Shown one piece after another: positions 1,929 to 36,378 of a stretch of DNA of 64,000 nucleotides. The stretch spans positions 128,532 to 192,531 of the forward strand of contig JABHAL010000015.1 of assembly GCA_018674305.1 (NCBI GenBank). Reading direction: 5' to 3'. The translations under genes and the position numbers were made by a program. The notes under the pieces are model-generated. The model was not told the DNA's origin and made no database searches. It saw nothing but the letters and a program-made list of their open reading frames with translations. Each line of letters begins with the position of its first letter. The stretch's first letter is position 1. This DNA comes from Candidatus Falkowbacteria bacterium (GTDB lineage: Bacteria; Patescibacteriota; Patescibacteriia; UBA11705; JABHMO01).

Positions 1929-2411
1929 CTACTCACCACGTTTTTTCTGCACGTACTTTTTAATCTGTTCGTTTGTACATTCTTTTGCCTGCTGACCCAA
2001 TTCATCATAAAAGGGTCTTTCAAAAACATGTACTGACCCATCCAATGAATCCGTTGTACAATACTTTCTCTGACCGGTCCAGCGGTCAACAAGTTGATCA
2101 CCACTGATAAAAAACATGGCCAAGGAATGCAAGGCAAACATTCCCAACAAAAGAGCAAAACCTAGGTTTCTCTTTTTTTTATTCCAACGAAGGAATAACC
2201 TAAAAATTGCAAACCACAGTACAAAGCCAACAACAACTGCGATGACGTTGGCTAAATAAACATTCAGACCTAACCCTAAAACCTGGCTTAGGGCGTATGG
2301 ATATATCATCAGGAAGCCGAGAAAACTGGCATATCGGAACATCCCAACTAACAGCAAAATTCCCATCACTAGAAGGGAAATGCCCAACAGTAGCCTTTTG
2401 TTATTATTCAT
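1929..2411 (-). CDS. Paralog-family membrane protein (160 aa; shortest member: 4-TM N-module + conserved Cys-containing soluble segment)
   Basis: Shares motifs YASFLGFLMIYPY / NVYLA / LWFAIFRLFLRWNKKKR / HSLAMF / CTTD...VFE..YDE.GQ..C with five downstream paralogs. Confidence 0.6.
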   Translation of the reverse strand: MNNNKRLLLGISLLVMGILLLVGMFRYASFLGFLMIYPYALSQVLGLGLNVYLANVIAVVVGFVLWFAIFRLFLRWNKKKRNLGFALLLGMFALHSLAMFFISGDQLVDRWTGQRKYCTTDSLDGSVHVFERPFYDELGQQAKECTNEQIKKYVQKKRGE

Positions 2412-2423
2412 CTTAAACCTCCC

Positions 2424-3464
2424 TTATTCAAGATCATCTTTAAACACCCAGACAAAAAATGAATGTACAATAAGACTAATTATTACAGTCATATACCCTA
2501 GAATTGCCAATCTAGTAGCATACACCAAGCAATACCCAACTCCCCCCATAAGTCCACCTACCGTCAAAGTCACAATCAAGACCTTCAGAGTGAGCTCATT
2601 TCTTTCTTTACTGTCATATTCAGAATGATCTAAATACATAAATATAAAGCCAGATATTACTAATGTGAAAAGAAGTGTTATTATTATAGTAAAAGTTACA
2701 ATTGAGTCCATTGGATTTGATATTTCTTTTTTTAGCGAACTGGAATGTGTTTCTGTAGGTTGATGAAATTGCGTACTTGTTTTTTTCTTGGGCCCCTCAT
2801 TTCGCCAACGTGCTTGATTTTGTTCAGCTTTGGCAAATGACTGTTCTCTGATCTTTTCCATTCCAGTGTCAGTTTTTATTCCACGCTTTTTTTGCACAAA
2901 TTCCAAGGCCTGACTCTTATTACACTTTCTAGCCTTTTGGCCAAATTCATCATAGATTGGTTGATCAAACACCTGTAGTTCATTTGTGATTTTGTCATAA
3001 GTACAATATTTAATCACTTGGCCTGTTTGGGGGTCATAAATTCTTGAGCTGGTAATAAAATACATTGCCAGAGAGTGGGCAACAAAGATAAAAGCCAGCA
3101 AAATAAAACCTCGTTCCATTTTCTTTCTATTTAAACTGAAAAACAGTTTAAATATTGCGTACCACAGAATTGCTCCAACACCGACTGCAATTGCCTTGGC
3201 TAAATATTGATTCAACCCAAGCCCGAGGAGTTGCTCCAGGGCGTAAGGATAAACCATTAAAAAACCAAAAACTGATGCATAGCGCCAGGTGCCAATCAGA
3301 AGCAAAATTGCCACGACTAGTAAAAATATTCCTAGTTGCAATTTCTTTTTTCTAATTTTTTCTCTTTCTAACAATTCATGAATAGAAGTAATTGAAATAC
3401 CAGGACTCGTGTCTGGCCCTTTTGCAAAATGATTCTTTTTCTTCTGACTCATTTTATCCTCCAT
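2424..3464 (-). CDS. Paralog-family membrane protein (346 aa; N-terminal extension + conserved module + C-terminal 2-TM tail)
   Basis: Conserved FGFLMVYPY...NQYLAKAIAV...SLNRKK...HSLAMY...KYCTYD...VFDQPIYDEFGQKARKC block. Confidence 0.65.
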   Translation of the reverse strand: MEDKMSQKKKNHFAKGPDTSPGISITSIHELLEREKIRKKKLQLGIFLLVVAILLLIGTWRYASVFGFLMVYPYALEQLLGLGLNQYLAKAIAVGVGAILWYAIFKLFFSLNRKKMERGFILLAFIFVAHSLAMYFITSSRIYDPQTGQVIKYCTYDKITNELQVFDQPIYDEFGQKARKCNKSQALEFVQKKRGIKTDTGMEKIREQSFAKAEQNQARWRNEGPKKKTSTQFHQPTETHSSSLKKEISNPMDSIVTFTIIITLLFTLVISGFIFMYLDHSEYDSKERNELTLKVLIVTLTVGGLMGGVGYCLVYATRLAILGYMTVIISLIVHSFFVWVFKDDLE

Positions 3465-3516
3465 TCTTAAAGAACAACAACTGTTTTATTTTTCAATAAA
3501 ACAGTTGTCAGCCTTT

Positions 3517-3553
3517 AAAAAATTAGGGCGAAGCAAAGTGCTTGACTTCGCCC
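3517..3553 (-). terminator. Intrinsic terminator (GGGCGAAG-loop-CTTCGCCC + T6 on minus strand) after paralog 3580..4695
   Basis: 8-bp GC stem followed by U-run on minus strand. A second 12-bp hairpin lies at 3477-3510. Confidence 0.6.
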
Positions 3554-3579
3554 ATGTTAGACTTTCAAAACAAACACCG

Positions 3580-4695
3580 TTATGGGTGAAGTAAGTTATG
3601 GAATGATCTACGAATCATTGAAAAATCTATATCTAATGAACTATCTTCAACAATAAAATACAATAACACACAATACCCAAAAATCAATAACGCGCCAACC
3701 GGAATTCCAAAAATGAAAACAAGTACTGCTGGAGCATTATAATATACAATAATAGTTGCCAAATCAGCAACCAAAATTATAATAATAGAAATTGGCAACG
3801 CTGAAAACACTACCAACACAGAAAACTGCCAATAACCACTATCCGCTCCAGCCAACATAAACAAAACACCACCAACAAGACAAAAAATGAACAAAAGAAA
3901 TGCCAAGCCACCAGTAGTTTGATAATCCATAAAAGCAAATAAGTTGAAATTAAAATCTGACTCGTCGGATTCAATCTCTTCAACGTCTTCATTACTATTT
4001 TCCCATTCGAGATAATTACCTTTCGTTGACGTCCGTTTGACTATAGCTGGTGTTACTTGCCTTACATTGCCACCCCAAGGACAATGGCCAACCATATTAA
4101 AGAAGCGAACAATTCCGTCTATGTCATAGCAGTAATAAAATATTGACTTGCCAGTTGTTGGACTAATAAAGCCCTTTTTTATCTGAACAAAATCAATTTC
4201 CTGATTTTCATCAGGCTCATATTTTTTTTCAATTTCAAATCTTTCAACTTGATCATCTTCACAACGATAAGCAAGATCACCAAACTCATCGTAAAGCTGA
4301 GCCTCATAAACCTTAACCCGACCGGTCAAACGATCATCAATACAAAATTTTCGCTCTCCAGTAATCGGATGTACAATCGTATTGTAATTAACTGCGTACA
4401 TCACCAGGGAATGACTAATGAAGATTAATCCAATTATTGCAAATCCAATGTAGCGTCGCTTTTTATTCCAACTAAGAAAAAACTTAAAGATAACTACCCA
4501 TAAACCGACACCGGCTATTAGGGCAATCACTTGAGCCAGATAAATATTAAGGCCGTAGCCAGAAATCTGTGCTACCACATACGGATAAAACATTAAAAAA
4601 CCAAAAAACTCAGCGTACATTGCTATTCCAACCAGCAAAAATACTGCCAAACCAATAAAAAACACACCAATAGACAACTTTGTCCACTTTGACAT
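3580..4695 (-). CDS. Paralog-family membrane protein (371 aa)
   Basis: Conserved N-module plus second conserved soluble motif FYYCYD...GHCPWGG; variable C-terminal TM bundle; RBS GGAGG upstream. Confidence 0.7.
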   Translation of the reverse strand: MSKWTKLSIGVFFIGLAVFLLVGIAMYAEFFGFLMFYPYVVAQISGYGLNIYLAQVIALIAGVGLWVVIFKFFLSWNKKRRYIGFAIIGLIFISHSLVMYAVNYNTIVHPITGERKFCIDDRLTGRVKVYEAQLYDEFGDLAYRCEDDQVERFEIEKKYEPDENQEIDFVQIKKGFISPTTGKSIFYYCYDIDGIVRFFNMVGHCPWGGNVRQVTPAIVKRTSTKGNYLEWENSNEDVEEIESDESDFNFNLFAFMDYQTTGGLAFLLFIFCLVGGVLFMLAGADSGYWQFSVLVVFSALPISIIIILVADLATIIVYYNAPAVLVFIFGIPVGALLIFGYCVLLYFIVEDSSLDIDFSMIRRSFHNLLHP

Positions 4696-4761
4696 GACAA
4701 ACCTCCGTAATTTTAAAGATCAATCTTTATTCTAAATTATTTAGAACAAGGATTAAGCTTG

Positions 4762-4798
4762 AAAAAATTAGGGCGAAGCAAAGTGCTTGACTTCGCCC
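4762..4798 (-). terminator. Intrinsic terminator, same sequence as 3526-3553
   Basis: GGGCGAAGCAAAGTGCTTGACTTCGCCC + A-run on plus strand (U-run on minus strand). Confidence 0.6.
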
Positions 4799-4823
4799 AG
4801 GTTTTGTAGTTTACATCTTGAAT

Positions 4824-5930
4824 CTATTTATCTTTGAACATGTTTTTGATAACGTATCTTGCGTCACAAAAATCTCGTTCCAAAGAAGTATTTTTAGAAA
4901 TCCAAATAACTATCAGGTAATATCCAAGTGTCACTAAAACGAATATTGGTATACCAAAAATAGCCATAAAAAAATTGGGAACCTTCAGATGAGACATCCA
5001 AACTGCCAAATCCGCTATTAATATCCCTATAAAGGTCATTGGGAATATTGAGAACACACACAAAGAACAAAATTTCAACGAACGAATACCTATCCCAGCA
5101 AGAAAAAAAATCATCAATACAATCAAAATAACAAGAAAGCAAAATGCAAACAATAGAGTCGCTTCCTTATTTTTTTCAAAGGCAAAGAAATTAATTTTTG
5201 AAGCAGGCTTAACCTGCGGCTCACTTATTTCACGTGCTATTGGTCGGTAATTGTTGTTTTCCTTCGTTTGTTTAATAATATCTGCAGTTACATCTGAAAG
5301 TTCACCGCCCCAAGGACAATGACCACGCATATTAAAAAAATGAACTCTGGCTTCAGTGTCATTGCAATAGAAAAATATTGCTTTTCCCGTTTTCTGACTT
5401 ATAAAACCATTTGCAACCTGATAAAAATCAATTTCTTGATTATTGTCCATTGCATATCTTTTATTAATTTCAAAGCGTCTGAGTTGGCTATCATTACATC
5501 TAATAGACTGGTCACCAAATTCGTCATAACTGTGCCCTTCATAGACCTTTACGCGCCCACTCAATTTATCGTCAATGCAAAACTTTCGATCTCCAGTAAT
5601 TGGATGAACAATCGTGTTGTAATTAACTGCGTACATTACTAGTGAATGACTGACAAAAATTAAAACGATCAACCCAAAACCGATGTAGCGTCTTTTTTTA
5701 TTCCAGCTCAAAAAGAACTTAAAAATAGTTACCCATAGCCCGATGCCGATAATTAAACCGATCACTTGAGCCAAATAAATATTAAGGCCGTAACCAGAAA
5801 CTTTCACCACGATATATGGGTAAACCATTAAAAAACCAATGAAATCCGCGTACATCACAAGACCAAGGAAAAGAAATACTGCCAAACCAACAAAAAAAAT
5901 ACCCAAAGTTCGCTTTGTCCACTTTAACAT
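4824..5930 (-). CDS. Paralog-family membrane protein (368 aa); closest sister of 3580..4695
   Basis: High identity in N-module. 5' UTR/promoter block (5938-5995) nearly identical to 4703-4760. Confidence 0.7.
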   Translation of the reverse strand: MLKWTKRTLGIFFVGLAVFLFLGLVMYADFIGFLMVYPYIVVKVSGYGLNIYLAQVIGLIIGIGLWVTIFKFFLSWNKKRRYIGFGLIVLIFVSHSLVMYAVNYNTIVHPITGDRKFCIDDKLSGRVKVYEGHSYDEFGDQSIRCNDSQLRRFEINKRYAMDNNQEIDFYQVANGFISQKTGKAIFFYCNDTEARVHFFNMRGHCPWGGELSDVTADIIKQTKENNNYRPIAREISEPQVKPASKINFFAFEKNKEATLLFAFCFLVILIVLMIFFLAGIGIRSLKFCSLCVFSIFPMTFIGILIADLAVWMSHLKVPNFFMAIFGIPIFVLVTLGYYLIVIWISKNTSLERDFCDARYVIKNMFKDK

Positions 5931-5993
5931 GACAAACCTCCGAAATTTTAAAGATCAATCTTTATTCTAAATATTTTAGAACAAGGATTAAAC

Positions 5994-6031
5994 TTGAAAA
6001 TAAATAAGGGCAAGGCGCAAGCACCTTGCCC
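5994..6031 (-). terminator. Intrinsic terminator variant (GGGCAAGGCG-CAAG-CACCTTGCCC)
   Basis: GC hairpin with flanking A-run on plus strand, immediately after small ORF 6038..6292. Confidence 0.5.
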
Positions 6032-6037
6032 TTTGGA

Positions 6038-6292
6038 CTACTTCTTTTTACGTTTTTCCTTCAACTTCTTAACCCACGGATGCCCAGAACTCAAGAAAAT
6101 GCTGAACAATCCGATGGCGATACTCAGGAGAATTCCCGTAACAAACCAAGCCTCCTTTTTGTTAACTTCACGACCTTCGGGGTTTTCCTCAGCATCTTCT
6201 CCCATGATCCAGCCTTTAATAAAGGCAATTCCAAGAAGGAAGAAAAAGATGATAAGCACAACAATCGCAATCAAGATAATTTTTAACCACAT
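6038..6292 (-). CDS. Small 2-TM membrane protein (84 aa) with C-terminal GHPWVKK motif; paralog of 10244..10489
   Basis: Two copies share architecture (TM - acidic loop - TM - HPWVKK - basic tail); both are followed by the GGGCAAGG hairpin. Confidence 0.5.
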   Translation of the reverse strand: MWLKIILIAIVVLIIFFFLLGIAFIKGWIMGEDAEENPEGREVNKKEAWFVTGILLSIAIGLFSIFLSSGHPWVKKLKEKRKKK

Positions 6293-6319
6293 GGCATCCC
6301 TCCTGTTTAGTGGTCCTCT

Positions 6320-7810
6320 TTACTGAAAAGTGTATTCCATATAATGATCATTAGCATCCTTGCCACTGATTGTCACTTCAATCCAACGAAGGTTAGAATT
6401 ACCTCCCTTCAATCCCTTGTAATATGATGTCAAATCGATCATAAATCGTGCATTTTGAGTATGATGCTTCAAATTTGCTTCAAGGTACACTTCTGGTGCC
6501 AATTTCCAAGAGAAAACAATAGGAGTCCTTTGCTTATATTGAGCTGGGGACTCTCCTTTGCTTTTCAACACCCAGGCATTCATTGTTGCATCAGTGTATG
6601 TAACTGAGACACCGTGCTTTTCCTCACCTCTGAAATAAAGCCGGCAATTTGAAGACAGAAAACCGGGCCAATTCCACTCAATATTTCGAAAAACAGGGTA
6701 TGCCACAACATTTCTAGTTTTACTGGCAGCTGGATTATTTTTATTCCAGCCAGCTGTAACAATTTCGTAATGCTTTCTATCTTTTTCTAGTTGGGCTGCT
6801 TTTTTAGCCTTCTCTTTGGCTTTTTTTTCTGCTCTTTTTTTAGCAACCCTTTCTTTTCGTAATTCAGCCTTAGCATCTTCAGCTTTTCTGTTTTCTAGAT
6901 GTACCCTTCGTTTTTCCTGTCGGGCAAATTTATTTCTTTCGGCCTCTAGACTTTTTTCTGCTGAAACCCTTTTTCGTGCTTCTTCTTTTGCTTTTTTCTC
7001 TGCAACCAATCTTTCACGTCGCTCTTTTTCAATCTTTAATTTCAGGTTTTGCTTTTTTTCTTTCTCTAACCTGATTTGTTCATTTTTTTTTTGCAACTTC
7101 TCTCTTTCTTTCCTTACAATTTCACCAGTAATGACCTGAAGCTCGCCTCCCCAGGGACAATACCCAGAGGATGCGTAAAAATGAACCGTTCCTTCAGGAT
7201 CAGTACAGTAGAAAAAAAGTGCCTTTCCCGTGGCTGGACTAACAAATCCAGACTCTACTCTCTCAAGTGTGACTTCGTAATTCTTGGTAGTAGCAAACTG
7301 CTTACCCTTCTCATATTTTTCAATGAGCTCGGGGGAACAACGCTGTGCCTGCTGACCAAACTTATCATAAAGAGCCTGTTCAAAAACCTGAATTTCACCA
7401 GTCAAAGGATTGACTGTGCAAAACTTAGCCATAGCCGGTCCATCAATAGGATGAACCAAGGAGTCCCCTTGAATCAGGAACATTGCCAAGGAATGCAATG
7501 CAAAAAATGCTGCAATGGTGATCATCCCCGCAAGCCGTCGATCTTTCTTCCAGCTAAAGAAAAGCCGGAAAATTGCGTACCACAGAGGTACCGCAACAAC
7601 TATTCCAATTGCCTGGGCCAGATAAGGATTCATTCCGAATCCGGAAATCTTGCTGACCACGTACGGATAAACCATCAAAAAACCAAAAATCGAAGCATAT
7701 TTAACAAGACTGATCAAAATCAGAATTGCCAATGCCACAAAAAACAACCCGAGAAACAGTTTAGCTGTCCTCTTCATAACACACCTCCAATGGTTATTTT
7801 CAACGAACAA
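6320..7810 (-). CDS. Paralog-family membrane protein (496 aa) with K/E-rich coiled-coil insert and a distinct soluble C-terminal domain
   Basis: Conserved N-module (FGFLMVYPY, FFSWKKDRR, HSLAMF, FFYCTD...GYCPWGG), then ~120 aa EKEKK/ERRER low-complexity helix and a non-TM C-terminal domain. Confidence 0.7.
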   Translation of the reverse strand: MFVENNHWRCVMKRTAKLFLGLFFVALAILILISLVKYASIFGFLMVYPYVVSKISGFGMNPYLAQAIGIVVAVPLWYAIFRLFFSWKKDRRLAGMITIAAFFALHSLAMFLIQGDSLVHPIDGPAMAKFCTVNPLTGEIQVFEQALYDKFGQQAQRCSPELIEKYEKGKQFATTKNYEVTLERVESGFVSPATGKALFFYCTDPEGTVHFYASSGYCPWGGELQVITGEIVRKEREKLQKKNEQIRLEKEKKQNLKLKIEKERRERLVAEKKAKEEARKRVSAEKSLEAERNKFARQEKRRVHLENRKAEDAKAELRKERVAKKRAEKKAKEKAKKAAQLEKDRKHYEIVTAGWNKNNPAASKTRNVVAYPVFRNIEWNWPGFLSSNCRLYFRGEEKHGVSVTYTDATMNAWVLKSKGESPAQYKQRTPIVFSWKLAPEVYLEANLKHHTQNARFMIDLTSYYKGLKGGNSNLRWIEVTISGKDANDHYMEYTFQ

Positions 7811-7850
7811 TATTTAATCTTAAATCATTAAAATCAAATATCGTTTTTTG

Positions 7851-7891
7851 AAAAAAATTAGGGGCGAAAGCAAAGTTGTTCACTTCGCCCC
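7851..7891 (-). terminator. Intrinsic terminator (GGGGCGAA...TTCGCCCC + A7)
   Basis: Same hairpin family, located after 7908..8786. Confidence 0.55.
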
Positions 7892-7907
7892 TAGCATTAT
7901 TTTAGTT

Positions 7908-8786
7908 TCAAAGATCCCTCAAATAAATGATAACTTCTCGGGGAGAAATATTAGCGCATTTTTTTCTAAGCCACCTACTTGACTGATATCTATCTCTTGA
8001 ATATTTTGTTTGTTCAATCCATTTTGGATTTGCTTTTATCTGAATCAGATAATGCAAGGCCATATTATCACATAACCACTCTGCATCGTCACCTGATACT
8101 TCGTCCTGGCTAACAAACTCATGTAACCAAGCGTGAAAAAGTTCATGCACCAAGATGGCTCTGTGCACATCAAGTGGTAACCCAAAAAGAATGCTAATCA
8201 AGTGATTCGTAACTTCTGTTTTTCCCAGAAAAGGTTGGATATATTTAGTTAAACAATTCCCCAAGGTTGTACTACCTCGATTCCTATTTCTTTTAGTTAT
8301 AATCCCAAGGGTATTCAGATCGACGACTCTATATTCAATGGGTTTCCTTGGAAACCATGAATGCAGGTGCAATATCCGACTAACACCATTTATTATACTT
8401 TGATCAATTTGAAAAACGGCATCAATTGAACAAGTCGGGCAAATTACCCGGTAATCGGCTAAGTGCATTACATCATTAGGAGCCATTTGAGAGTGACAAG
8501 TAAAACACTGAAAACGTGGATCATGGCACCCTTTGCAAACAGCACCCTGGTCAGTGTTGAAATATCGTCCGTTTATTTTATTCCTACAAAGGCAACATTT
8601 CAAAGCAATTGAGTCATAACATTGTGAATGGTATAAAGAACCATCACATTCAACAGTATTATTCCCAATTAATGGCTGACTACAGACCGAACACTTTGGC
8701 GCACGTGAATTCACGCAAAAATCACAATACGTTACATTATTCAATGTAAAAATTTGTCTCGCGGATCTACCGCAATCGCACCTCAT
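7908..8786 (-). CDS. DA1-like protein: N-terminal LIM-type Cys/His zinc fingers + C-terminal HExxH zinc metallopeptidase (HELFHAWLHEF)
   Basis: Multiple CxxC...HxxCxxC clusters in the N-terminal half; HELFHAWL closely resembles the HEMMHAWL signature of DA1-like peptidases. Confidence 0.55.
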   Translation of the reverse strand: MRCDCGRSARQIFTLNNVTYCDFCVNSRAPKCSVCSQPLIGNNTVECDGSLYHSQCYDSIALKCCLCRNKINGRYFNTDQGAVCKGCHDPRFQCFTCHSQMAPNDVMHLADYRVICPTCSIDAVFQIDQSIINGVSRILHLHSWFPRKPIEYRVVDLNTLGIITKRNRNRGSTTLGNCLTKYIQPFLGKTEVTNHLISILFGLPLDVHRAILVHELFHAWLHEFVSQDEVSGDDAEWLCDNMALHYLIQIKANPKWIEQTKYSRDRYQSSRWLRKKCANISPREVIIYLRDL

Positions 8787-8787
8787 T

Positions 8788-8901
8788 TTAATCCTTGGTG
8801 ATAAAAAAGATGATAGCGATAATGATGATAATCAGCAGAATTCCTCCACCACCCGAATCACCACCAGCAACAACGCCAAGACTAATAAGTGAATTTAGCA
8901 T
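8788..8901 (-). CDS. Micro-ORF (37 aa): MLNSLISLGVVAGGDSGGGGILLIIIIIAIIFFITKD; Gly-rich N-half + single TM; stop lies 1 nt from the ATG of the DA1-like gene
   Basis: ATG..TAA ORF below the 60-aa ORF-track cut-off; arrangement TAAAATG suggests translational coupling. Confidence 0.3.
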   Translation of the reverse strand: MLNSLISLGVVAGGDSGGGGILLIIIIIAIIFFITKD

Positions 8902-8974
8902 TTTCGTCTCCTCTAAATTTTAGTCAATGAACAATATTTATTTTCAAATTATTAAAAACAAATATTATTGATTG

Positions 8975-9008
8975 AAAAAAGTTGGGGCAGGCAAGCTAAG
9001 CCTACCCC
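8975..9008 (-). terminator. Intrinsic terminator variant (GGGGCAGGC-loop-GCCTACCCC + A6)
   Basis: Hairpin followed by U-run on minus strand. Confidence 0.5.
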
Positions 9009-9016
9009 GTTGGTTA

Positions 9017-10165
9017 TTAAAATTCATCAAAAATCTTTATACCTAAATGAAAAACGCCAATAGTCAATAGTACGTAAATTGGGATCGAAAGAACAACCAT
9101 GACAACTATATGCAATTGTGCCCAAATGAGCAGGGACAATATATCAGCAGTCAATACACTTATTACTGCTAAAAAAGGAAGCACAATAAACGCACCAACC
9201 ATAGTTGGCCCATTCCCGTCTGACAGTCCAACACATAACGTAATAATAGAAATAATTACTGACAGAACGAAGAAAATCCCCGCAATAATATTTGTTTTTT
9301 TGTGATTTCTAAATTCCCAAAACCACGCAGTATAACTTATTTGCATTTCAGATTCAGCAGGGACAACTTCAACTTCCTGTGTTGTTCCCTCGAACGTTGG
9401 AAACTCCAGTTCAAATGGGACATAAACTGACTCTTGATGCACCAAAATTTCTTTATTGGCTATTTTTGCCACAAGAACAGAACTGACAGGCAAAAGTTGA
9501 CCTCCCCAAGGACAATATCCTTCAGAAGAAAAAAAGTGTGCTTTTTTCTCAGAGTCAAAACAATAGAAGAACAATGGTTTTCCAGTTGCCGGACTTATGA
9601 AACCATCCTGCACCCTAGAAAAAGAAACTTCCTTGCTTGTTCCATCAGTAAAAGTTTTTTCTCTCTCGTACTTTTCAATCAATTCCGGTGAGCACCTTTC
9701 CGCTTTATTACCAAACTGATCATAGATAGACTGTTCAAATGTTTGAATTTCACCTGTCAAAGGATTCACAGTACAAAATTTCGCCATTGCGGGACCATCA
9801 AATGGATGAACCAAGGAATCACCTTGCAATAAAAACATAGAGAATGAATGCAAAGCGAAAAAAGCTACAATTGTAATCATGCCAGCCATTCTGCGATCCT
9901 TTTTCCAACTAAACAAAAGTCGGAAAACTGCATACCAAATTGGAATGGCTACAACAATACCGATTCCTTGCGCCAAATATGAATTCATCCCAAAACCTGT
10001 AATCTTTGTAACTACGTAGGGATAAATAAGCAAAAAACCAAAAATAGTTGCGTATTTCAGTAAACTGACAATCATTAGGATTGCCAAGCTGATAAAAATG
10101 ACTCCAAAAATTATTCCTGCTTTTCTCTTCATGTCATCCTCCACAGCGTTGGTTTCAATGAACAA
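9017..10165 (-). CDS. Paralog-family membrane protein (382 aa); closest sister of 6320..7810 in the N-module
   Basis: MKRKAGIIFGVIFISLAILMIVSLLKYATIFGFLLIYPY... FFYCFD..GYCPWGG; C-terminal TM bundle. Confidence 0.7.
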   Translation of the reverse strand: MFIETNAVEDDMKRKAGIIFGVIFISLAILMIVSLLKYATIFGFLLIYPYVVTKITGFGMNSYLAQGIGIVVAIPIWYAVFRLLFSWKKDRRMAGMITIVAFFALHSFSMFLLQGDSLVHPFDGPAMAKFCTVNPLTGEIQTFEQSIYDQFGNKAERCSPELIEKYEREKTFTDGTSKEVSFSRVQDGFISPATGKPLFFYCFDSEKKAHFFSSEGYCPWGGQLLPVSSVLVAKIANKEILVHQESVYVPFELEFPTFEGTTQEVEVVPAESEMQISYTAWFWEFRNHKKTNIIAGIFFVLSVIISIITLCVGLSDGNGPTMVGAFIVLPFLAVISVLTADILSLLIWAQLHIVVMVVLSIPIYVLLTIGVFHLGIKIFDEF

Positions 10166-10204
10166 TATTTACTTTTAAATTTTTTAAAAATAAGTATTGT
10201 TATT

Positions 10205-10243: not shown

Positions 10244-10489
10244 TTATACTCTTCGCCCCTTCATTTTCTTTACCCACGGATGATCCGTGGCCAGGAAAAG
10301 GGTACAGACACCAATGACCGCAGCGGCCACAAAGGCACCAACGCTCCACTTTTCCTTTTCAGTGAAGGGAATGGGGTTTCCCTCCTCATCCTTGAAAGGC
10401 TGCCATGATCCCTTGATCAACAGCACCCCGCCAACAAGCAATGCAACGATCACTAAAACAAACAAAATACCAACAAAGTTCAACATCAC
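10244..10489 (-). CDS. Small 2-TM membrane protein (81 aa) with C-terminal DHPWVKK motif; paralog of 6038..6292
   Basis: Same architecture and C-terminal motif as 6038..6292. Confidence 0.5.
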   Translation of the reverse strand: MMLNFVGILFVLVIVALLVGGVLLIKGSWQPFKDEEGNPIPFTEKEKWSVGAFVAAAVIGVCTLFLATDHPWVKKMKGRRV

Positions 10490-10528: not shown

Positions 10529-10810
10529 TCAATCATCATCCTTTCCGAAAATCGCATCTCGACATCTTTTGTAAAGCGAATCAACGCCTCGCCTGGTAAG
10601 TTTACGCATTTCCTTGGCCGCAGTCTCCGCTTTTTGTTTTTTTATTTCTGCCTTTCTATCTGAAAAAGCAAAAAAGCTTCCCAGACCATTCATAAGCATT
10701 TCTTTGCCTAGATCAAAGGCAACTTCCACAGCCTCTTCTACAACTTCTTCCTGCTCACCGGACAACTTAATTTTGGCATCTTTTTCTTCTGTTTTATTTT
10801 TTTTCACCAC
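10529..10810 (-). CDS. Small charged hypothetical protein (93 aa)
   Basis: ORF overlaps the 3' end of the vWA gene by 17 nt (co-transcription likely). Confidence 0.4.
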   Translation of the reverse strand: MVKKNKTEEKDAKIKLSGEQEEVVEEAVEVAFDLGKEMLMNGLGSFFAFSDRKAEIKKQKAETAAKEMRKLTRRGVDSLYKRCRDAIFGKDDD

Positions 10811-11654
10811 CGCCTCCTAAAAGTAAAAGCTTACTTTCCGCGGAAGCCGATAACAGATTTCGTTTTTTCTGTGTTTTTACGTATTCTTCCAAGTCGCCAG
10901 TCTTGTGAGCGCAAACTCCGATCAAAATCTGAACCAAATCATCAAGATCAGAATCACACATTTCAAGGTATTGTCCCTTCGTCTCTTTTGCAATTTCCTT
11001 GTAAAAGCCTTGCGTTTTGTAGAGTTTCTTGTACGCTAAGGCCCCTTCTTCAAAACAGAACATGGAATAAACCGTTACTCCAAGCTCAACAAGCTTATCG
11101 ATCTCGTCCTTGTAATTGAATTCATTCCGACAGTTAGAAACTGGGTCAACAACGCCATGCGGAGGCATATCTCCAATCAACACTACCATCCTGATTGAAC
11201 CAGGGGTCCACTCAACATCATGTGCTAAATGATGAAGAACACATTCCAGGGCAGAAAGACCATCACCACCGCCACCAGGCCGAACTTTTTCTATTTCAGT
11301 CTGAATATCTTGCGGATCGCTCAAAAAATCGGTAGCCGAGAAAGCACGAACTCCATCAAAATGCCTTTCTTCATCGCCATGATTCTTGTAAGCAATGTAG
11401 CAGAAACGAGCCTTAGGATTTGTTTCACTCACTTCTTTCACGATCCGAGCAATTGCCTTTTTTCCTCGGTCAAAGTAACCCCACATACTAGCAGTAGTAT
11501 CAAAGGCAAAAGCAACCTCCAAAATTCCCTTTCCAGGCGTTTTACCAGTAGAACCAAATCGCTTTGATTCTCTGGTTTTGGCCAAGCCTCGTCTTTCGCC
11601 AAGTTTGGTTAAACCACCAGCTCCTGAAGTTGGACGTTTAATAATATTTGCCAT
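10794..11654 (-). CDS. von Willebrand factor A (vWA) domain protein
   Basis: MIDAS-like DTTASM (DxSxS-type) motif, GGGGDGLSALE, VVLIGDMPPHG typical of vWA fold. Confidence 0.65.
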   Translation of the reverse strand: MANIIKRPTSGAGGLTKLGERRGLAKTRESKRFGSTGKTPGKGILEVAFAFDTTASMWGYFDRGKKAIARIVKEVSETNPKARFCYIAYKNHGDEERHFDGVRAFSATDFLSDPQDIQTEIEKVRPGGGGDGLSALECVLHHLAHDVEWTPGSIRMVVLIGDMPPHGVVDPVSNCRNEFNYKDEIDKLVELGVTVYSMFCFEEGALAYKKLYKTQGFYKEIAKETKGQYLEMCDSDLDDLVQILIGVCAHKTGDLEEYVKTQKKRNLLSASAESKLLLLGGGGEKK

Positions 11655-11665
11655 TGTCTCCTCCT

Positions 11666-12628
11666 TTATAATGTTTTGTCGTAATCAGCACGTTGTTGAG
11701 CATCTTTCAATATTTGATAAGCTTCATTAACATTTTGAAATTTTTCATCGAAAGCTTTCTCGATCTGAGCTCTAACATCAGGATCACTGACTTTATTCAT
11801 CTCTGCAGTCTTCACGTCGGGATGATATTTTTTTGCCATTTTCCGATATGCTGATTTGATTTCATTGGAGGTCGCAGATGGCTGAATTCCCAAAATATCG
11901 TAATAATTCTTTCTTGGGCCTTTGGATGAAGTCCCACTGTTTGAACTACCACCAGAAGAACTCCCCGCCAAATAATCTCGCAAAGTAACTTCTTCTTCCA
12001 ACAACTTATCATAAAGCTCAAGCAAAGAAGTCATATCACCAAAATCAAAGCGTGATGCTTTGTAATCATTAAAGTCGGCTTCAATCTCAGACAAGGTCAC
12101 CAAATCATCGTCAGTTTCTGCTCTTTCTCCTGCCTGAATAAGTAACTCGAAGCAAGTTGCCAACAAATCATCGGTCTTTTTGTAAAGCTCAGCAAATTCA
12201 GGGAACTTTTTTCTCGTTTTCTGAATTTTGAGTCGTAAAGGAATAAAGTCAAAACCTTGCTCCCTTACCTGATCCAAGAAATCTTCAGCCGTTTCATCAA
12301 TAACAGCTTCCAACGGCAGAAGATGCTTGAAGGGTTCTTTGATTCTTTTTTTTCTTGCTCGAAATTGACCAAGCTCTTTCTTTAAAATTTTTGATTGCTC
12401 CTTCTTTGCAATTGCCGGGATAAGTTGTGGTAACAAAGAGAAAATGCCAAACAATATCGCTGACTGCCAGCCATCTCGACCATGTATAATTGGTCTCGCA
12501 CCACTTCCATTCTTCATCGCCCGAATGCCACTCTTGTCAAAAACAGTAGGATGGCTACGAACAATAATTCTGATCCCTATCCAAACTAGTAAAATAACGC
12601 CTAAAAATAGCAAAATTTTATATAACAT
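11666..12628 (-). CDS. Membrane-anchored J-domain (DnaJ-like) protein
   Basis: N-terminal TM helix; C-terminal DYYDILGI...YRKMAKKYHPDV...EAYQILKD with HPD tripeptide. Confidence 0.7.
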   Translation of the reverse strand: MLYKILLFLGVILLVWIGIRIIVRSHPTVFDKSGIRAMKNGSGARPIIHGRDGWQSAILFGIFSLLPQLIPAIAKKEQSKILKKELGQFRARKKRIKEPFKHLLPLEAVIDETAEDFLDQVREQGFDFIPLRLKIQKTRKKFPEFAELYKKTDDLLATCFELLIQAGERAETDDDLVTLSEIEADFNDYKASRFDFGDMTSLLELYDKLLEEEVTLRDYLAGSSSGGSSNSGTSSKGPRKNYYDILGIQPSATSNEIKSAYRKMAKKYHPDVKTAEMNKVSDPDVRAQIEKAFDEKFQNVNEAYQILKDAQQRADYDKTL

Positions 12629-14905: not shown

Positions 14906-15862
14906 CTACTTATCCCAACAAAAATTATTCCCGAAATGGCCAAACTCAGCAGTTTGTTCAAATTGAGGCTTTTTCAACTCTAATAAAGTAATAATCCCTT
15001 TAGGAGTTAAATCATAACCTTGTACATTCTCTTTGCGACCATCAATTTCCACAGTCGCCATTACCGGTTCAGCTACTCCAATTGAATAAGCTAAATGGCA
15101 AATAACTTCTTTGGCATTATTTTTTTGTAAATAATCAACAGCAATTTTTCTGGCCATGTAAGCAGCGGAACGATCGACTTTGGACGGATCCTTGCCTGAA
15201 AATGCACCACCTCCGATAGGAATTCGTGGACCATAGTTATCCACAATCAATTTCCGACCAGTTACACCAGCATCTGCCTCAAATCCTCCTTGTGACCAAT
15301 CACCAGCTGGATTAACATAAATTTTAAGGTTTTCACTTACATTTTTGTCTTTTAACCATTCTTCAACCAGCCCCTTCATTTCTTCTGCTCGAGCATGCTG
15401 AAAGCTGGCCACGACAGTTGAAATTAAATTGTTTTCTAATGTAATTTGAGTTTTGCCATCAGTTTTGTATTTAGAAAATAATACTCGACACAAATCACGT
15501 GAAAGCTTTACCTCCAAAGGAATTAATTCCGGAGTTTCACTGCAAGCATATCCAACCATGATTCCCTGGTCACCAGCACCACCCGGATCAACTCCTCGGG
15601 CAATATCTGGAGATTGCTGAACTAAATTGACACTAACTTGATATTGATCTCCAGCAATTCGTTTAGCAATTTTTTCCGCATCAAAAACCGCACCGGAAGT
15701 AATCTCTCCGGTAATTGTAATAACTCCATGCCCCCCCATTGTCTCTACTGCAACCCGTGAATGTGGGTCTTGCGATAAACAAATATCTAAAATAGCATCG
15801 GAAACACGATCACAAATTTTGTCTGGGTGCATTGGTGAAACTGACTCTGCTGTACGTAACAT
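14906..15862 (-). CDS. metK: S-adenosylmethionine synthetase (compact form, 318 aa)
   Basis: HPDKICDRVSDAILD, GGGAFSGKDPSKVDRSAAY hallmark motifs. Confidence 0.9.
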   Translation of the reverse strand: MLRTAESVSPMHPDKICDRVSDAILDICLSQDPHSRVAVETMGGHGVITITGEITSGAVFDAEKIAKRIAGDQYQVSVNLVQQSPDIARGVDPGGAGDQGIMVGYACSETPELIPLEVKLSRDLCRVLFSKYKTDGKTQITLENNLISTVVASFQHARAEEMKGLVEEWLKDKNVSENLKIYVNPAGDWSQGGFEADAGVTGRKLIVDNYGPRIPIGGGAFSGKDPSKVDRSAAYMARKIAVDYLQKNNAKEVICHLAYSIGVAEPVMATVEIDGRKENVQGYDLTPKGIITLLELKKPQFEQTAEFGHFGNNFCWDK

Positions 15863-16118
15863 AAATTCTTTGGCCGCGATGTAACCAGAAATAGTTTTTG
15901 GTTTTGTTGCAGCTTAATACTTAAATAAAAAATACTCTTTCATCACGAAAAAGTATAATAATTGAATAATTATTTATCTTTCCCGTGCTGGGCTAGAATT
16001 GACACCTTCTTGAATTACCTTCAAGGGTTGTCGACAGGTCATCGGGCTATATCCCTCACTGTACTCTTGATAAATGGTTAAATTGTATATATATAATATT
16101 ACACTAAAATTAATTTTA

Positions 16119-36051: not shown

Positions 36052-36378
36052 TGGCTCTGCGAGTCGGACTCGAACCGACGACCTACTGGTTACACTTATC
36101 CAAGGATTTCTCCAGGGCGTGGACTATATCATCACCATAGCAAATGCTTTAGGCGCGAGGCGCTTCCACCTTGATGTAAAAATCAAAGTGTACTCCTAAA
36201 AAGGATAGTCTCTGAACCTTCCCCAACTAATGTTAGGGCTTGGCTGCGGATTAGCATATCACAATTGACTTAGCCTTCCCGACAATTCACCTCGTTATTC
36301 ACCCCAATGTTTCCAAAGGGGGCTGCGTTATATTTTTGTGTACACAGCCAGTTGCTCTACCAACTGAGCTATCGCAGA
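36052..36378 (-). tRNA. tRNA-Asn(GUU) (alternative reading Thr-UGU) interrupted in the anticodon loop by a 251-nt group I intron (36093..36343); exons 36344..36378 (nt 1-35) and 36052..36092 (nt 36-76 incl. CCA)
   Basis: Exons give a perfect cloverleaf: acceptor TCTGCGA/TCGCAGA, D-arm GCTC-AGTTGGTA-GAGC, anticodon stem ACTGG/CCAGT with loop CUGU|UAA, T-arm GTCGG-TTCGAGT-CCGAC, G73, CCA. Intron has Q AATCCGCAGC (exact), R GTTCAGAGACTA (exact), S ATGATATAGTCC, P AATTGTCGGGAA in canonical order. P1 pairs GGCUGU (exon) with GCAGCC (IGS) giving U.G at the splice site; omega-G precedes 3' exon. Confidence 0.8.

Follow-up and report, generated by a model that had tools for sequence, protein, structure and literature searches.

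The gene considered here lies on the minus strand of a 64,000-nucleotide (nt) stretch of Candidatus Falkowbacteria DNA (contig JABHAL010000015.1 of assembly GCA_018674305.1, positions 128,532 to 192,531 of the forward strand), the whole of which is called the window in the following. It codes for a protein of 292 amino acids (aa) that very probably joins LIM-type zinc fingers to a DA1-like zinc peptidase with an HExxH motif. The gene is embedded in a tandem array of membrane-protein paralogs, referred to as par, and a hydrophobic open reading frame (ORF) of 37 codons ends directly in front of it. An earlier note on the same DNA had read the gene as a eukaryote-like DA1-type peptidase, had taken the small ORF for its translationally coupled partner and had suggested that the peptidase might process the membrane proteins encoded on either side.

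Family identity and fold of the encoded protein

Eight Cys/His pairs between residues 3 and 119 (C3xC5, C21xxC24, C32xxC35, H53xxC56, C64xxC67, C84xxC87, C94xxC97 and C116xxC119) make up four fingers at a spacing of about 30 residues, and the sequence HELFHAWLHEF occupies residues 214-224 of the C-terminal half, in agreement with the zinc-finger clusters and the peptidase signature that the earlier note had recognised. Searches with hidden Markov models (HMMs) likewise bore out the family assignment made there, since both halves exceeded the gathering scores of Pfam: LIM (PF00412) was matched over residues 32-88 with 26.5 bits (gathering score 22.9) and DA1-like (PF12315) over residues 172-254 with 28.8 bits (gathering score 25, E 9.8e-7). 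DA1-like was the only zincin model above its cut-off, SprT-like (PF10263) staying far below its own with 12.1 bits against 25.6 (E 0.18), and it was matched by all close relatives of the protein as well (14/14 in the closest clade). In an alignment of 79 sequences, H214, E215, H218 and W220 are invariant, while E236, the putative third zinc ligand located 17 residues past the second His of HELFH, is conserved to at least 90%; conservation is complete or almost complete at C64, C67, C94, C97, D111, R113, C116 and C119, and the Cys/His positions are kept in homologues at 30-40% identity. Since the HMM matches exceed curated cut-offs and the Cys/His positions are conserved, the gene is not a chance reading frame, and we are highly confident in its identification as a LIM plus DA1-like HExxH peptidase. 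A BLASTP comparison with an approximate Arabidopsis DA1 sequence gave 32% identity over a catalytic core of 94 aa (E 3e-8) and aligned the finger pair 2/3 with the canonical LIM of DA1.

A first AlphaFold2 (AF2) model from 4 sequences was poor, with a predicted local distance difference test (pLDDT) score of 64.8, and was superseded by a run on the 79-sequence alignment, which reached a pLDDT of 95.4 and a predicted template modelling score (pTM) of 0.87. In Foldseek comparisons, the N-terminal half of this model superposes on PINCH1 LIM4-5, FHL2 and Lhx3 LIM1-2 with E values of 6e-5 to 6e-4 over about 90-140 aligned columns, and the match probability amounts to 0.99-1.00 for PINCH1 LIM4-5, FHL2, Lhx3 and paxillin LIM2/3. 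Structure prediction, which the earlier note had named as a check, thus recovers tandem LIM structures, and a family profile searched against the PDB matched LIM proteins at E ~1e-17. The LIM pattern CxxC-x16-23-HxxC-x2-CxxC-x16-21-Cxx(C/H/D) is satisfied except for the linker between the fingers, which has 7 residues and not 2, and the register in which the four fingers combine into two LIM modules is ambiguous on sequence alone. The peptidase half folds in the model as beta-beta-beta-helix(HExxH)-helix; Foldseek returned no confident solved relative for it, the YbeY-like structure 1oz9 being a weak match at E 0.14.

The start codon at 8786 is backed by the N-terminal finger MRCDCG...C..C, which is kept in the homologues P0003, P0004 and P0005. 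Because this finger is conserved in homologues at 37-39% identity, we regard the 292-aa start as the right one. Exact copies of the 292-aa protein are encoded by 30 public contigs under the label 'hypothetical protein', and the entries that NCBI names 'protein DA1 [Candidatus Falkowbacteria bacterium]' are N-terminally shortened calls of 231, 192 and 186 aa. These entries (MBT5338080.1, MBT6573415.1 and MBT5502814.1) use downstream starts within window positions 8604-8786 (minus strand) and lose one to three of the four fingers. Loci of relatives were fetched from genome and metagenome collections, searched by tblastn with the window proteins, and are cited here by L numbers. One of them, L011 (JGI contig Ga0233434_1026165), carries an in-frame deletion of 156 nt (window 8386-8541); apart from this gap, its 3 kb of overlap with the window show 100% identity. 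The deletion takes out residues 83-134, i.e. the second half of finger 3, the whole of finger 4 and the linker, and its edges have a short GGTG..T microhomology in common; it represents either a probably non-functional population variant or an assembly artefact.

The conserved HExxH...E arrangement fits an active zincin, and catalytic activity is accordingly a prediction from the retained residues. Each chain would be expected to bind five zinc ions, one of them catalytic and four structural. A non-catalytic LIM scaffold or pseudo-peptidase, akin to those plant DA1-family proteins that act as decoys or inhibitors, would agree with the loss of a C-terminal DPxYGxG[FY]R motif in the subfamily to which the protein belongs and with the occurrence of a population variant lacking half of the LIM region. 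However, H214, E215, H218 and E236 are kept throughout this subfamily and the wider family, and we consider such a scaffold barely plausible.

An exhaustive profile search yielded 679 representative clusters at E<=1e-3, of which 136 reached E<=1e-10, and the close clade comprises about a dozen. The sampled named members are bacterial, among them 'protein DA1' of a gammaproteobacterium, a Taibaiella protein and Candidatus Falkowbacteria entries; several other family matches look eukaryotic from their sequence. The epithet eukaryote-like in the earlier note was therefore too strong, and recent horizontal transfer from a eukaryote was rejected on the GC content of the gene (0.38, compared with 0.37 for the window) together with homologues in conserved synteny within the Patescibacteria (candidate phyla radiation, CPR). 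Bacterial homologues of the Roseiflexus type with LIM-like modules were noted by Burroughs, Iyer and Aravind in 2011, as far as their work is cited in PMC5322733, and it is from comparative genomics only that bacterial relatives of DA1 are on record. The protein is a new member of a known, functionally uncharacterised bacterial family and no recent eukaryotic import, and within this family it belongs to a small, divergent and soluble subfamily of the Patescibacteria. What is newly seen here is its placement in a gene cluster that is conserved across related bacteria.

Table 1. Features of the window, with positions counted from its first nucleotide; SD, Shine-Dalgarno sequence; TM, transmembrane; VWA and J-domain, domain names.
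Feature	Position	Strand	Remarks
LIM + DA1-like zinc metallopeptidase gene	7908-8786	minus	ORF with ATG start, 292 aa; stop codon 7908-7910
Four consecutive treble-clef zinc fingers, two tandem LIM-type modules	8430-8780	minus	residues 3-119
Peptidase domain	7911-8402	minus	residues ~129-292; Pfam DA1-like spans residues 172-254
HELFH	8133-8147	minus	residues 214-218
E236, putative third zinc ligand	8079-8081	minus	conserved
SD-like AAGGA of peptidase gene	8792-8796	minus	5 nt before ATG, within 3' end of micro-ORF; read from ACCAAGGATTAAAATG
Likely intrinsic terminator after peptidase gene	7859-7893	minus	hairpin, dG -20.2 kcal/mol, and T-run, then AATTTTTTTC
Micro-ORF	8788-8901	minus	37 aa, hydrophobic, Gly-rich, MLNSLISLGVVAGGDSGGGGILLIIIIIAIIFFITKD
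Duplicated par-type upstream module	8902-9016	minus	terminator hairpin 8984-9008 and T-run; motif AAATATTGTTCATTGA 8924-8939; SD GAGGAG 8908-8913
par, type B, directly upstream of peptidase unit	9017-10132	minus	N-terminal TM module, four-Cys domain, three C-terminal TM segments
par, type A, directly downstream of peptidase unit	6320-7777	minus	N-terminal TM module, four-Cys domain, K/E-rich coiled coil, C-terminal beta domain
Four further par copies	4824-5930, 3580-4695, 2424-3464, 1929-2411	minus	
sTM, two-TM protein	10244-10489	minus	81 aa, conserved C-terminal DHPW[VI]KK tail; paralog 6038-6292
Helical protein	10529-10810	minus	93 aa, weakly conserved; between VWA and sTM/DA1 gene, as in relatives
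VWA-domain protein	10794-11654	minus	286 aa, presumably cytoplasmic; Pfam VWA_4 and VWA_2 matched weakly; named 'VWA domain-containing protein' by NCBI
TM-anchored J-domain protein, head of cluster	11666-12628	minus	320 aa; Pfam DnaJ (on L002); two N-terminal TM segments
Polytopic membrane protein next to array	60-1889	plus	609 aa
S-adenosylmethionine synthetase gene	14906-15862		
SAM riboswitch	15971-16076	minus	68.3 bits
tRNA gene with intron	~36052-36378	minus	
Group I intron (Rfam)	36100-36353		80.5 bits; in the anticodon loop of the tRNA gene

The micro-ORF and its transcription unit

The hydrophobic micro-ORF of 37 aa is present as the earlier note had described it and ends one nucleotide before the ATG of the peptidase gene, both ORFs lying on the minus strand, which had been left unstated. 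The junction reads ACC AAG GAT TAA A ATG AGG (TAA at 8790-8788, a single A at 8787 and ATG at 8786-8784) and so contains the sequence TAAAATG. An ORF of this size is not unusual locally, dozens of ORFs of at least 30 aa being found within 7 kb, and its distinguishing mark is the strong Shine-Dalgarno sequence (SD) 6 nt before its ATG. Over the 115 nt that precede it, the micro-ORF shows homology to the upstream regions of the par genes, with terminator, exact motif, GGAG-type SD and ATG in place, and when these regions of five par genes are aligned with it, the micro-ORF ATG occupies the position of the par-gene ATG. Local alignment of this upstream module scored z = 17-20 against shuffled sequences, and exact copies of the motif AAATATTGTTCRTTGA stand at three positions of the window (7800-7815, 8924-8939 and 10155-10170).

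A genuine small membrane protein that is translationally coupled to the peptidase and anchors or regulates it would make good use of the strong SD, of an ATG aligned with the par starts, of the TAAAATG junction and of the single transmembrane (TM) helix that follows the Gly-rich stretch of the predicted peptide. It could be viewed as the split-off equivalent of an N-terminal hydrophobic anchor, which is found in 31 of the 58 complete members of the wider family compared with 0 of 19 in the CPR clade, and the micro-ORF additionally gave a weak match to the NCBIfam model GG_III-CTERM that lies below the cut-off (E 0.0035). However, the conservation check suggested along with the earlier note speaks against such a coupled partner. 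The micro-ORF was present only on the contigs L002, which is identical to the window, and L011, which is likewise identical outside its 156-nt deletion; no comparable ORF was detected upstream of the homologues fetched from L001, L003, L006, L007, L012, L014-L020 and L023. Its exact sequence is absent from a collection of 15 billion proteins, no gene caller recorded it, and the peptidase gene has an SD of its own. In relatives, the gene directly upstream of the peptidase gene codes instead for the 81-aa two-TM protein sTM or for a helical protein of about 90 aa. The coupled membrane protein is in our view a decidedly unlikely reading, the micro-ORF is not a conserved component of the system, and its status as a gene is doubtful.

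We propose instead that the micro-ORF most likely arose as a by-product of a rearrangement of the array, which placed a par-type terminator, a promoter-like motif and an SD before the peptidase gene. On the most economical reading, the 37 codons are simply the stretch between the ATG of the par-type module and the start of the peptidase gene. If the micro-ORF is translated, ribosomes may in part reinitiate at TAAAATG, which could add to peptidase expression. Other explanations were rejected. As a 5' remnant of a par or sTM gene, the micro-ORF should resemble these genes in its coding sequence, and the similarity stays within the range of shuffled sequences (z <=2.2 for par and ~3.5 for the sTM copy at 6038). 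A programmed +1 frameshift that fuses the micro-ORF to the peptidase is excluded by the codon before the stop, GAT, since tRNA-Asp could not re-pair in the +1 frame, and a sequencing error at the junction is excluded by its unchanged sequence in two independent assemblies, L002 and L011.

With one terminator at 8984-9008 and a second one at 7859-7893, micro-ORF and peptidase gene look like a single transcription unit. The second hairpin was missed by a consensus terminator scan owing to its apical geometry. Every unit of the paralog array (1929-10170, minus strand) is headed by the same series of elements: first a terminator hairpin rich in GC and a T-run, then an AT-rich stretch containing AAATATTGTTCRTTGA or a close variant of it, and finally an SD of the GGAG type and the ATG. 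The array looks like a set of duplicated genes, each of them separately terminated and promoted.

Gene neighbourhood and proposed function

The position of the peptidase gene between membrane paralogs, as given in the earlier note, was confirmed: it lies between the ORFs 9017-10165 and 6320-7810, one par copy on each side, and the par family forms six tandem copies in the window whose C-terminal parts are variable. The complete order along the minus strand is J-domain protein, VWA protein, 93-aa protein, sTM, par 9017, micro-ORF, DA1-like peptidase, par 6320, sTM 6038-6292 and the four further par genes. For par, searches of Pfam, NCBIfam, PADLOC, PHROGs and PDB sequences were uninformative. 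The VWA protein fared no better with Pfam, PADLOC, PHROGs and a PDB search, nor did family libraries give any lead on the sTM and helical proteins. The last par copy of the array (1929-2411) has 160 aa, in which the N-terminal TM module is followed by no more than the beginning of the Cys domain, and abuts 2424-3464; it is probably a truncated paralog or pseudogene. The copy at 2424, in turn, is without the second half of the Cys domain. The type-A copy has a coiled coil, K/E-rich and some 130 residues long, which is kept together with the C-terminal beta-rich domain in L020 (1152-2372) and L023 (10689-11909). The topology estimate places both outside the cell, as would fit a surface protein on a stalk. 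Beside the array, the 609-aa polytopic membrane protein has a homologue of 41% identity beside the cluster in L023 (1307-3379) and may be a further conserved neighbour.

The partner genes recur beside DA1-like genes in related bacteria. VWA homologues at 43-47% identity adjoin them in L007, L014, L015, L016 and L023, and homologues of sTM, which itself has the C-terminal tail ...DHPWVKKMKGRRV, flank them in L006, L007, L012, L014, L015, L016, L017, L020, L023 and L024. Counterparts of the 93-aa protein occupy the same position in L007, L014, L015, L016, L017, L020 and L023; they share 18-27% identity with the window protein at a mean column identity of 40% in the family alignment, and BLAST misses them. 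A homologue of the J-domain protein (39% identity) was found in the same position on one long related contig, L023. par homologues adjoin DA1-like genes in at least 8 loci, and full-length type-A homologues follow them in L020 and L023.

Local gene orders differ from locus to locus. VWA, ~90-aa protein, sTM, DA1-like gene and par follow each other in L014, and the same genes appear in L007 with the DA1-like gene before sTM (VWA, ~90 aa, DA1, sTM, par). L015 and L016 show VWA, ~90 aa, DA1 and sTM, L017 shows ~90 aa, sTM and DA1, L012 shows sTM, DA1 and par, and L019 shows par and DA1. In L020, the order is par, sTM, par, a homologue of the ~90-aa protein and DA1, and a contig from ENA carries a VWA-annotated gene, 89 aa, DA1, 43 aa and 81 aa. 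L004/L006/L013 (Falkowbacteria RIFOXYC2_FULL_48_21) have sTM, DA1, par and a second, short DA1-like gene, followed by a rhomboid gene on the other strand. Nearest to the window is the 24-kb contig L023 with J-domain TM protein, VWA, 104 aa, sTM, DA1, par, short DA1 and par, in which all partners are found at 34-48% identity. The rhomboid gene, which lies near the cluster on the other strand in L004/L006 and L023, has no counterpart in the window and was rejected as a part of the cluster. The short DA1-like paralog of 196-246 aa (L004/L006 2378-3118, L023 10001-10591, also in L018, L019 and L020) possesses fingers 3-4 only and a basic C-terminal tail and usually stands after a par gene; the window is without it.

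Altogether, cluster partners lie beside the peptidase gene in at least 10 independent Patescibacteria loci, which we count as independent lineages because their identity to the window is 30-48%. A functional link between the peptidase and the cluster is thereby probable. Of the suggestion that the peptidase processes the paralogs, the association has gained the support of a conserved gene neighbourhood, and the cleavage itself keeps the rank of a proposal.

Our hydropathy scan detected no TM segment, signal peptide or hydrophobic stretch in the peptidase, and no hydrophobic segment was found in the VWA protein or the ~90-aa helical protein either; all three are presumably cytoplasmic. Cys-rich zinc fingers are expected to need a reducing compartment. 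We therefore favour, with a probability of roughly 0.55, a soluble cytoplasmic LIM-DA1 zinc peptidase that acts in a module for processing or quality control close to the membrane. Short linear peptides are the ligands of LIM domains in LMO/LDB1-type complexes, and for this reason the fingers are the candidate docking element: they would hold the peptidase on short cytoplasmic peptide segments of its membrane partners. Candidate segments are the tail of sTM and, in par, the N-tail, the KK-rich loop with the sequence SWKKDRR or the C-tail. The zincin domain would then cleave a membrane-proximal segment, and the outcome could be maturation, turnover or quality control of membrane proteins. The VWA and J-domain proteins may serve as co-factors, the former as a protein-binding component; J domains recruit Hsp70, and the membrane-anchored J-domain protein would bring Hsp70 to the membrane.

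Hydropathy and positive-inside reasoning place the par N-terminus on the inside, and the copy at 2424 has a K-rich N-terminal extension of 40 residues while lacking a signal peptide. The loop behind the third hydrophobic segment, rich in KK/RR, would likewise be inside and the conserved four-Cys domain outside, while the C-tail of type B, past three more TM segments, would return to the inside. With this topology, the peptidase would have access to the basic C-tail of sTM and, in par, to short stretches near the membrane. That par or sTM are themselves the direct substrates is a tentative assignment, with the odds leaning against it.

Several observations weigh against the proposed module. The DA1-like match reaches model positions 60-138 of 213 only, and in literature searches we found no biochemical or experimental work on bacterial DA1-like proteins and none on those of the CPR. 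The estimated location of the par Cys domain outside the cell would leave only short cytoplasmic segments as targets. In the loci of the Saccharibacteria type, the peptidase gene adjoins YchF, EF-P and RecA (L001/L008, with a similar layout in L009), so that the link to the cluster is not universal; in L001/L008, par and sTM lie about 6 kb off on the opposite strand, L003 shares only the upstream gene with these loci, and the cluster in L016 is without a par gene. The layout of the Saccharibacteria-type loci and L003, the short cytoplasmic parts of par and the terminator-bracketed unit in which the window keeps its peptidase gene would be expected if the substrates were unrelated to the neighbours and the clustering reflected shared regulation or hitch-hiking in small CPR genomes. 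Against this, each of at least 10 independent loci, with proteins at only 30-48% identity, draws its neighbours from one set of four or five partner families, adjacency is kept although the local order varies, and some loci interleave two peptidase genes with two par genes. We consider unrelated substrates unlikely on these grounds and retain the membrane-proximal processing module as the better explanation.

A conflict or defence module, in which a VWA sensor and the peptidase activate membrane-inserting effectors in the manner of protease-activated pore formers, was also weighed. The six-copy tandem array with its variable C-terminal parts would supply such effectors, VWA and protease combinations occur in known conflict systems, and the peptidase gave weak matches to PADLOC peptidase_U41 (E 4e-4, in the HExxH region) and phrog_1233 (E 1.7e-6). 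However, no cassette protein had a significant PADLOC match, other matches staying at E>=0.002, no NTPase, nuclease, other typical effector or sign of a mobile element was found around the cluster, and the J-domain protein points to protein biogenesis or quality control. A conflict function is thus very improbable.

Two further features of the window lie apart from the cluster. The SAM riboswitch stands directly upstream of the S-adenosylmethionine synthetase gene, which is an ordinary arrangement. The group I intron sits inside a tRNA gene that ARAGORN finds only with introns allowed, as tRNA-Thr(tgt) with an intron of 251 nt; the anticodon depends on the intron boundaries.

Comparison with known DA1, LIM and zincin proteins

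The peptidase gene alone is an ordinary member of a known family, of which shortened versions are already named 'protein DA1', and it would gain in interest if processing of the surface-protein family by the module were demonstrated. What the locus provides is a concrete context for the bacterial DA1 family: a short soluble enzyme with candidate partners and substrates encoded alongside, in an arrangement kept in divergent CPR bacteria. It could reveal the ancestral role of LIM-peptidases and the way in which LIM fingers direct a protease, and the expanded membrane-protein family may matter for the cell surface of episymbiotic bacteria.

Among bacterial proteins, those named 'protein DA1' and related LIM-peptidases belong to the same family and are the next-best matches after the CPR clade (E 1e-20 to 1e-10). 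LIM repeats and an HExxHxW...E core are common to them and the window protein, and they differ from it by a length of mostly 300-460 aa, by more CxxC pairs and by keeping the DPxYGxG[FY]R motif. The corresponding C-terminal motif of the wider family, (D/S)PxYGxG[FY]R, is not present in the window protein or in most of the CPR clade, where W...SRDxY is found instead, and only P0006 and P0010 of this clade retain a YG[YF]GLR remnant. The distant homologues of Ignavibacteria, unlike the CPR clade, have no VWA, sTM or par neighbours.

With animal LIM adaptors such as PINCH1 LIM4-5, FHL2 and Lhx3/LMO-LDB1, the N-terminal half has the tandem LIM fold in common, and the pair of finger 2 and finger 3 matches the canonical CxxC-x17-HxxC ... 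CxxC-x16-CxxC. The window protein departs from them in its linker of 7 rather than 2 residues, in the CxC of finger 1, in the fusion to a peptidase and in being bacterial. Small zincins of the SprT/Wss1 type also place the HExxH helix after a small beta sheet, as the window protein does; matches to these and other small zincins were weak and below threshold throughout, including Peptidase_M78 and BSP in single relatives.

In plants, DA1 peptidases have been studied in depth as regulators of organ size and of signalling by receptor kinases, and DA1/DAR proteins have the same order of modules as the window protein, i.e. LIM, then a 'LIM-like' module of four CxxC, then an HExxH...E zincin. Plant DA1 is longer (~530 aa, compared with 292 aa) and presumably carries the C-terminal DPxYGxG[FY]R motif, judging from the approximate DA1 sequence used here. 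The ubiquitin-interacting motifs (UIMs) of DA1/DAR are missing in the window protein, which opens at finger 1 (M1-R-C3) and leaves no room for them. Plant DA1 is activated by ubiquitylation; no ubiquitin system is evident for the window peptidase, and this mode of activation is therefore not expected to apply to it. In plant DA1, the 'LIM-like' module of four CxxC/H pairs precedes a peptidase with the motif HEMMH-x15-EE (Dong et al. 2017, PMC5322733). This module corresponds to fingers 3-4 of the window protein (residues 64-119: C64xxC67, C84xxC87, C94xxC97 and C116xxC119), which are accompanied by a conserved D111-x-R113 and followed by an A123-V motif, whereas the motif HELFH-x17-E has a spacing longer by 2 residues and W in place of the second E.

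In function, plant DA1 cleaves proteins at specific sites (PMC5322733), and peptidases of the DA1 family cut the membrane kinase TMK1 in its juxtamembrane intracellular region (PMC9546594). The cleavage proposed here would resemble this cut close to the membrane. A more far-reaching version, which we put forward as speculation and hold to be rather doubtful, would see the J-domain, VWA, helical and two-TM proteins together with one or two LIM-DA1 peptidases as an undescribed conserved module of Patescibacteria for the site-specific cleavage of surface membrane proteins that belong to an expanded family with variable C-terminal parts. Regulated by its partners and not by ubiquitin, such a module would be a prokaryotic counterpart, and a possible antecedent, of the juxtamembrane cleavage carried out in plants.

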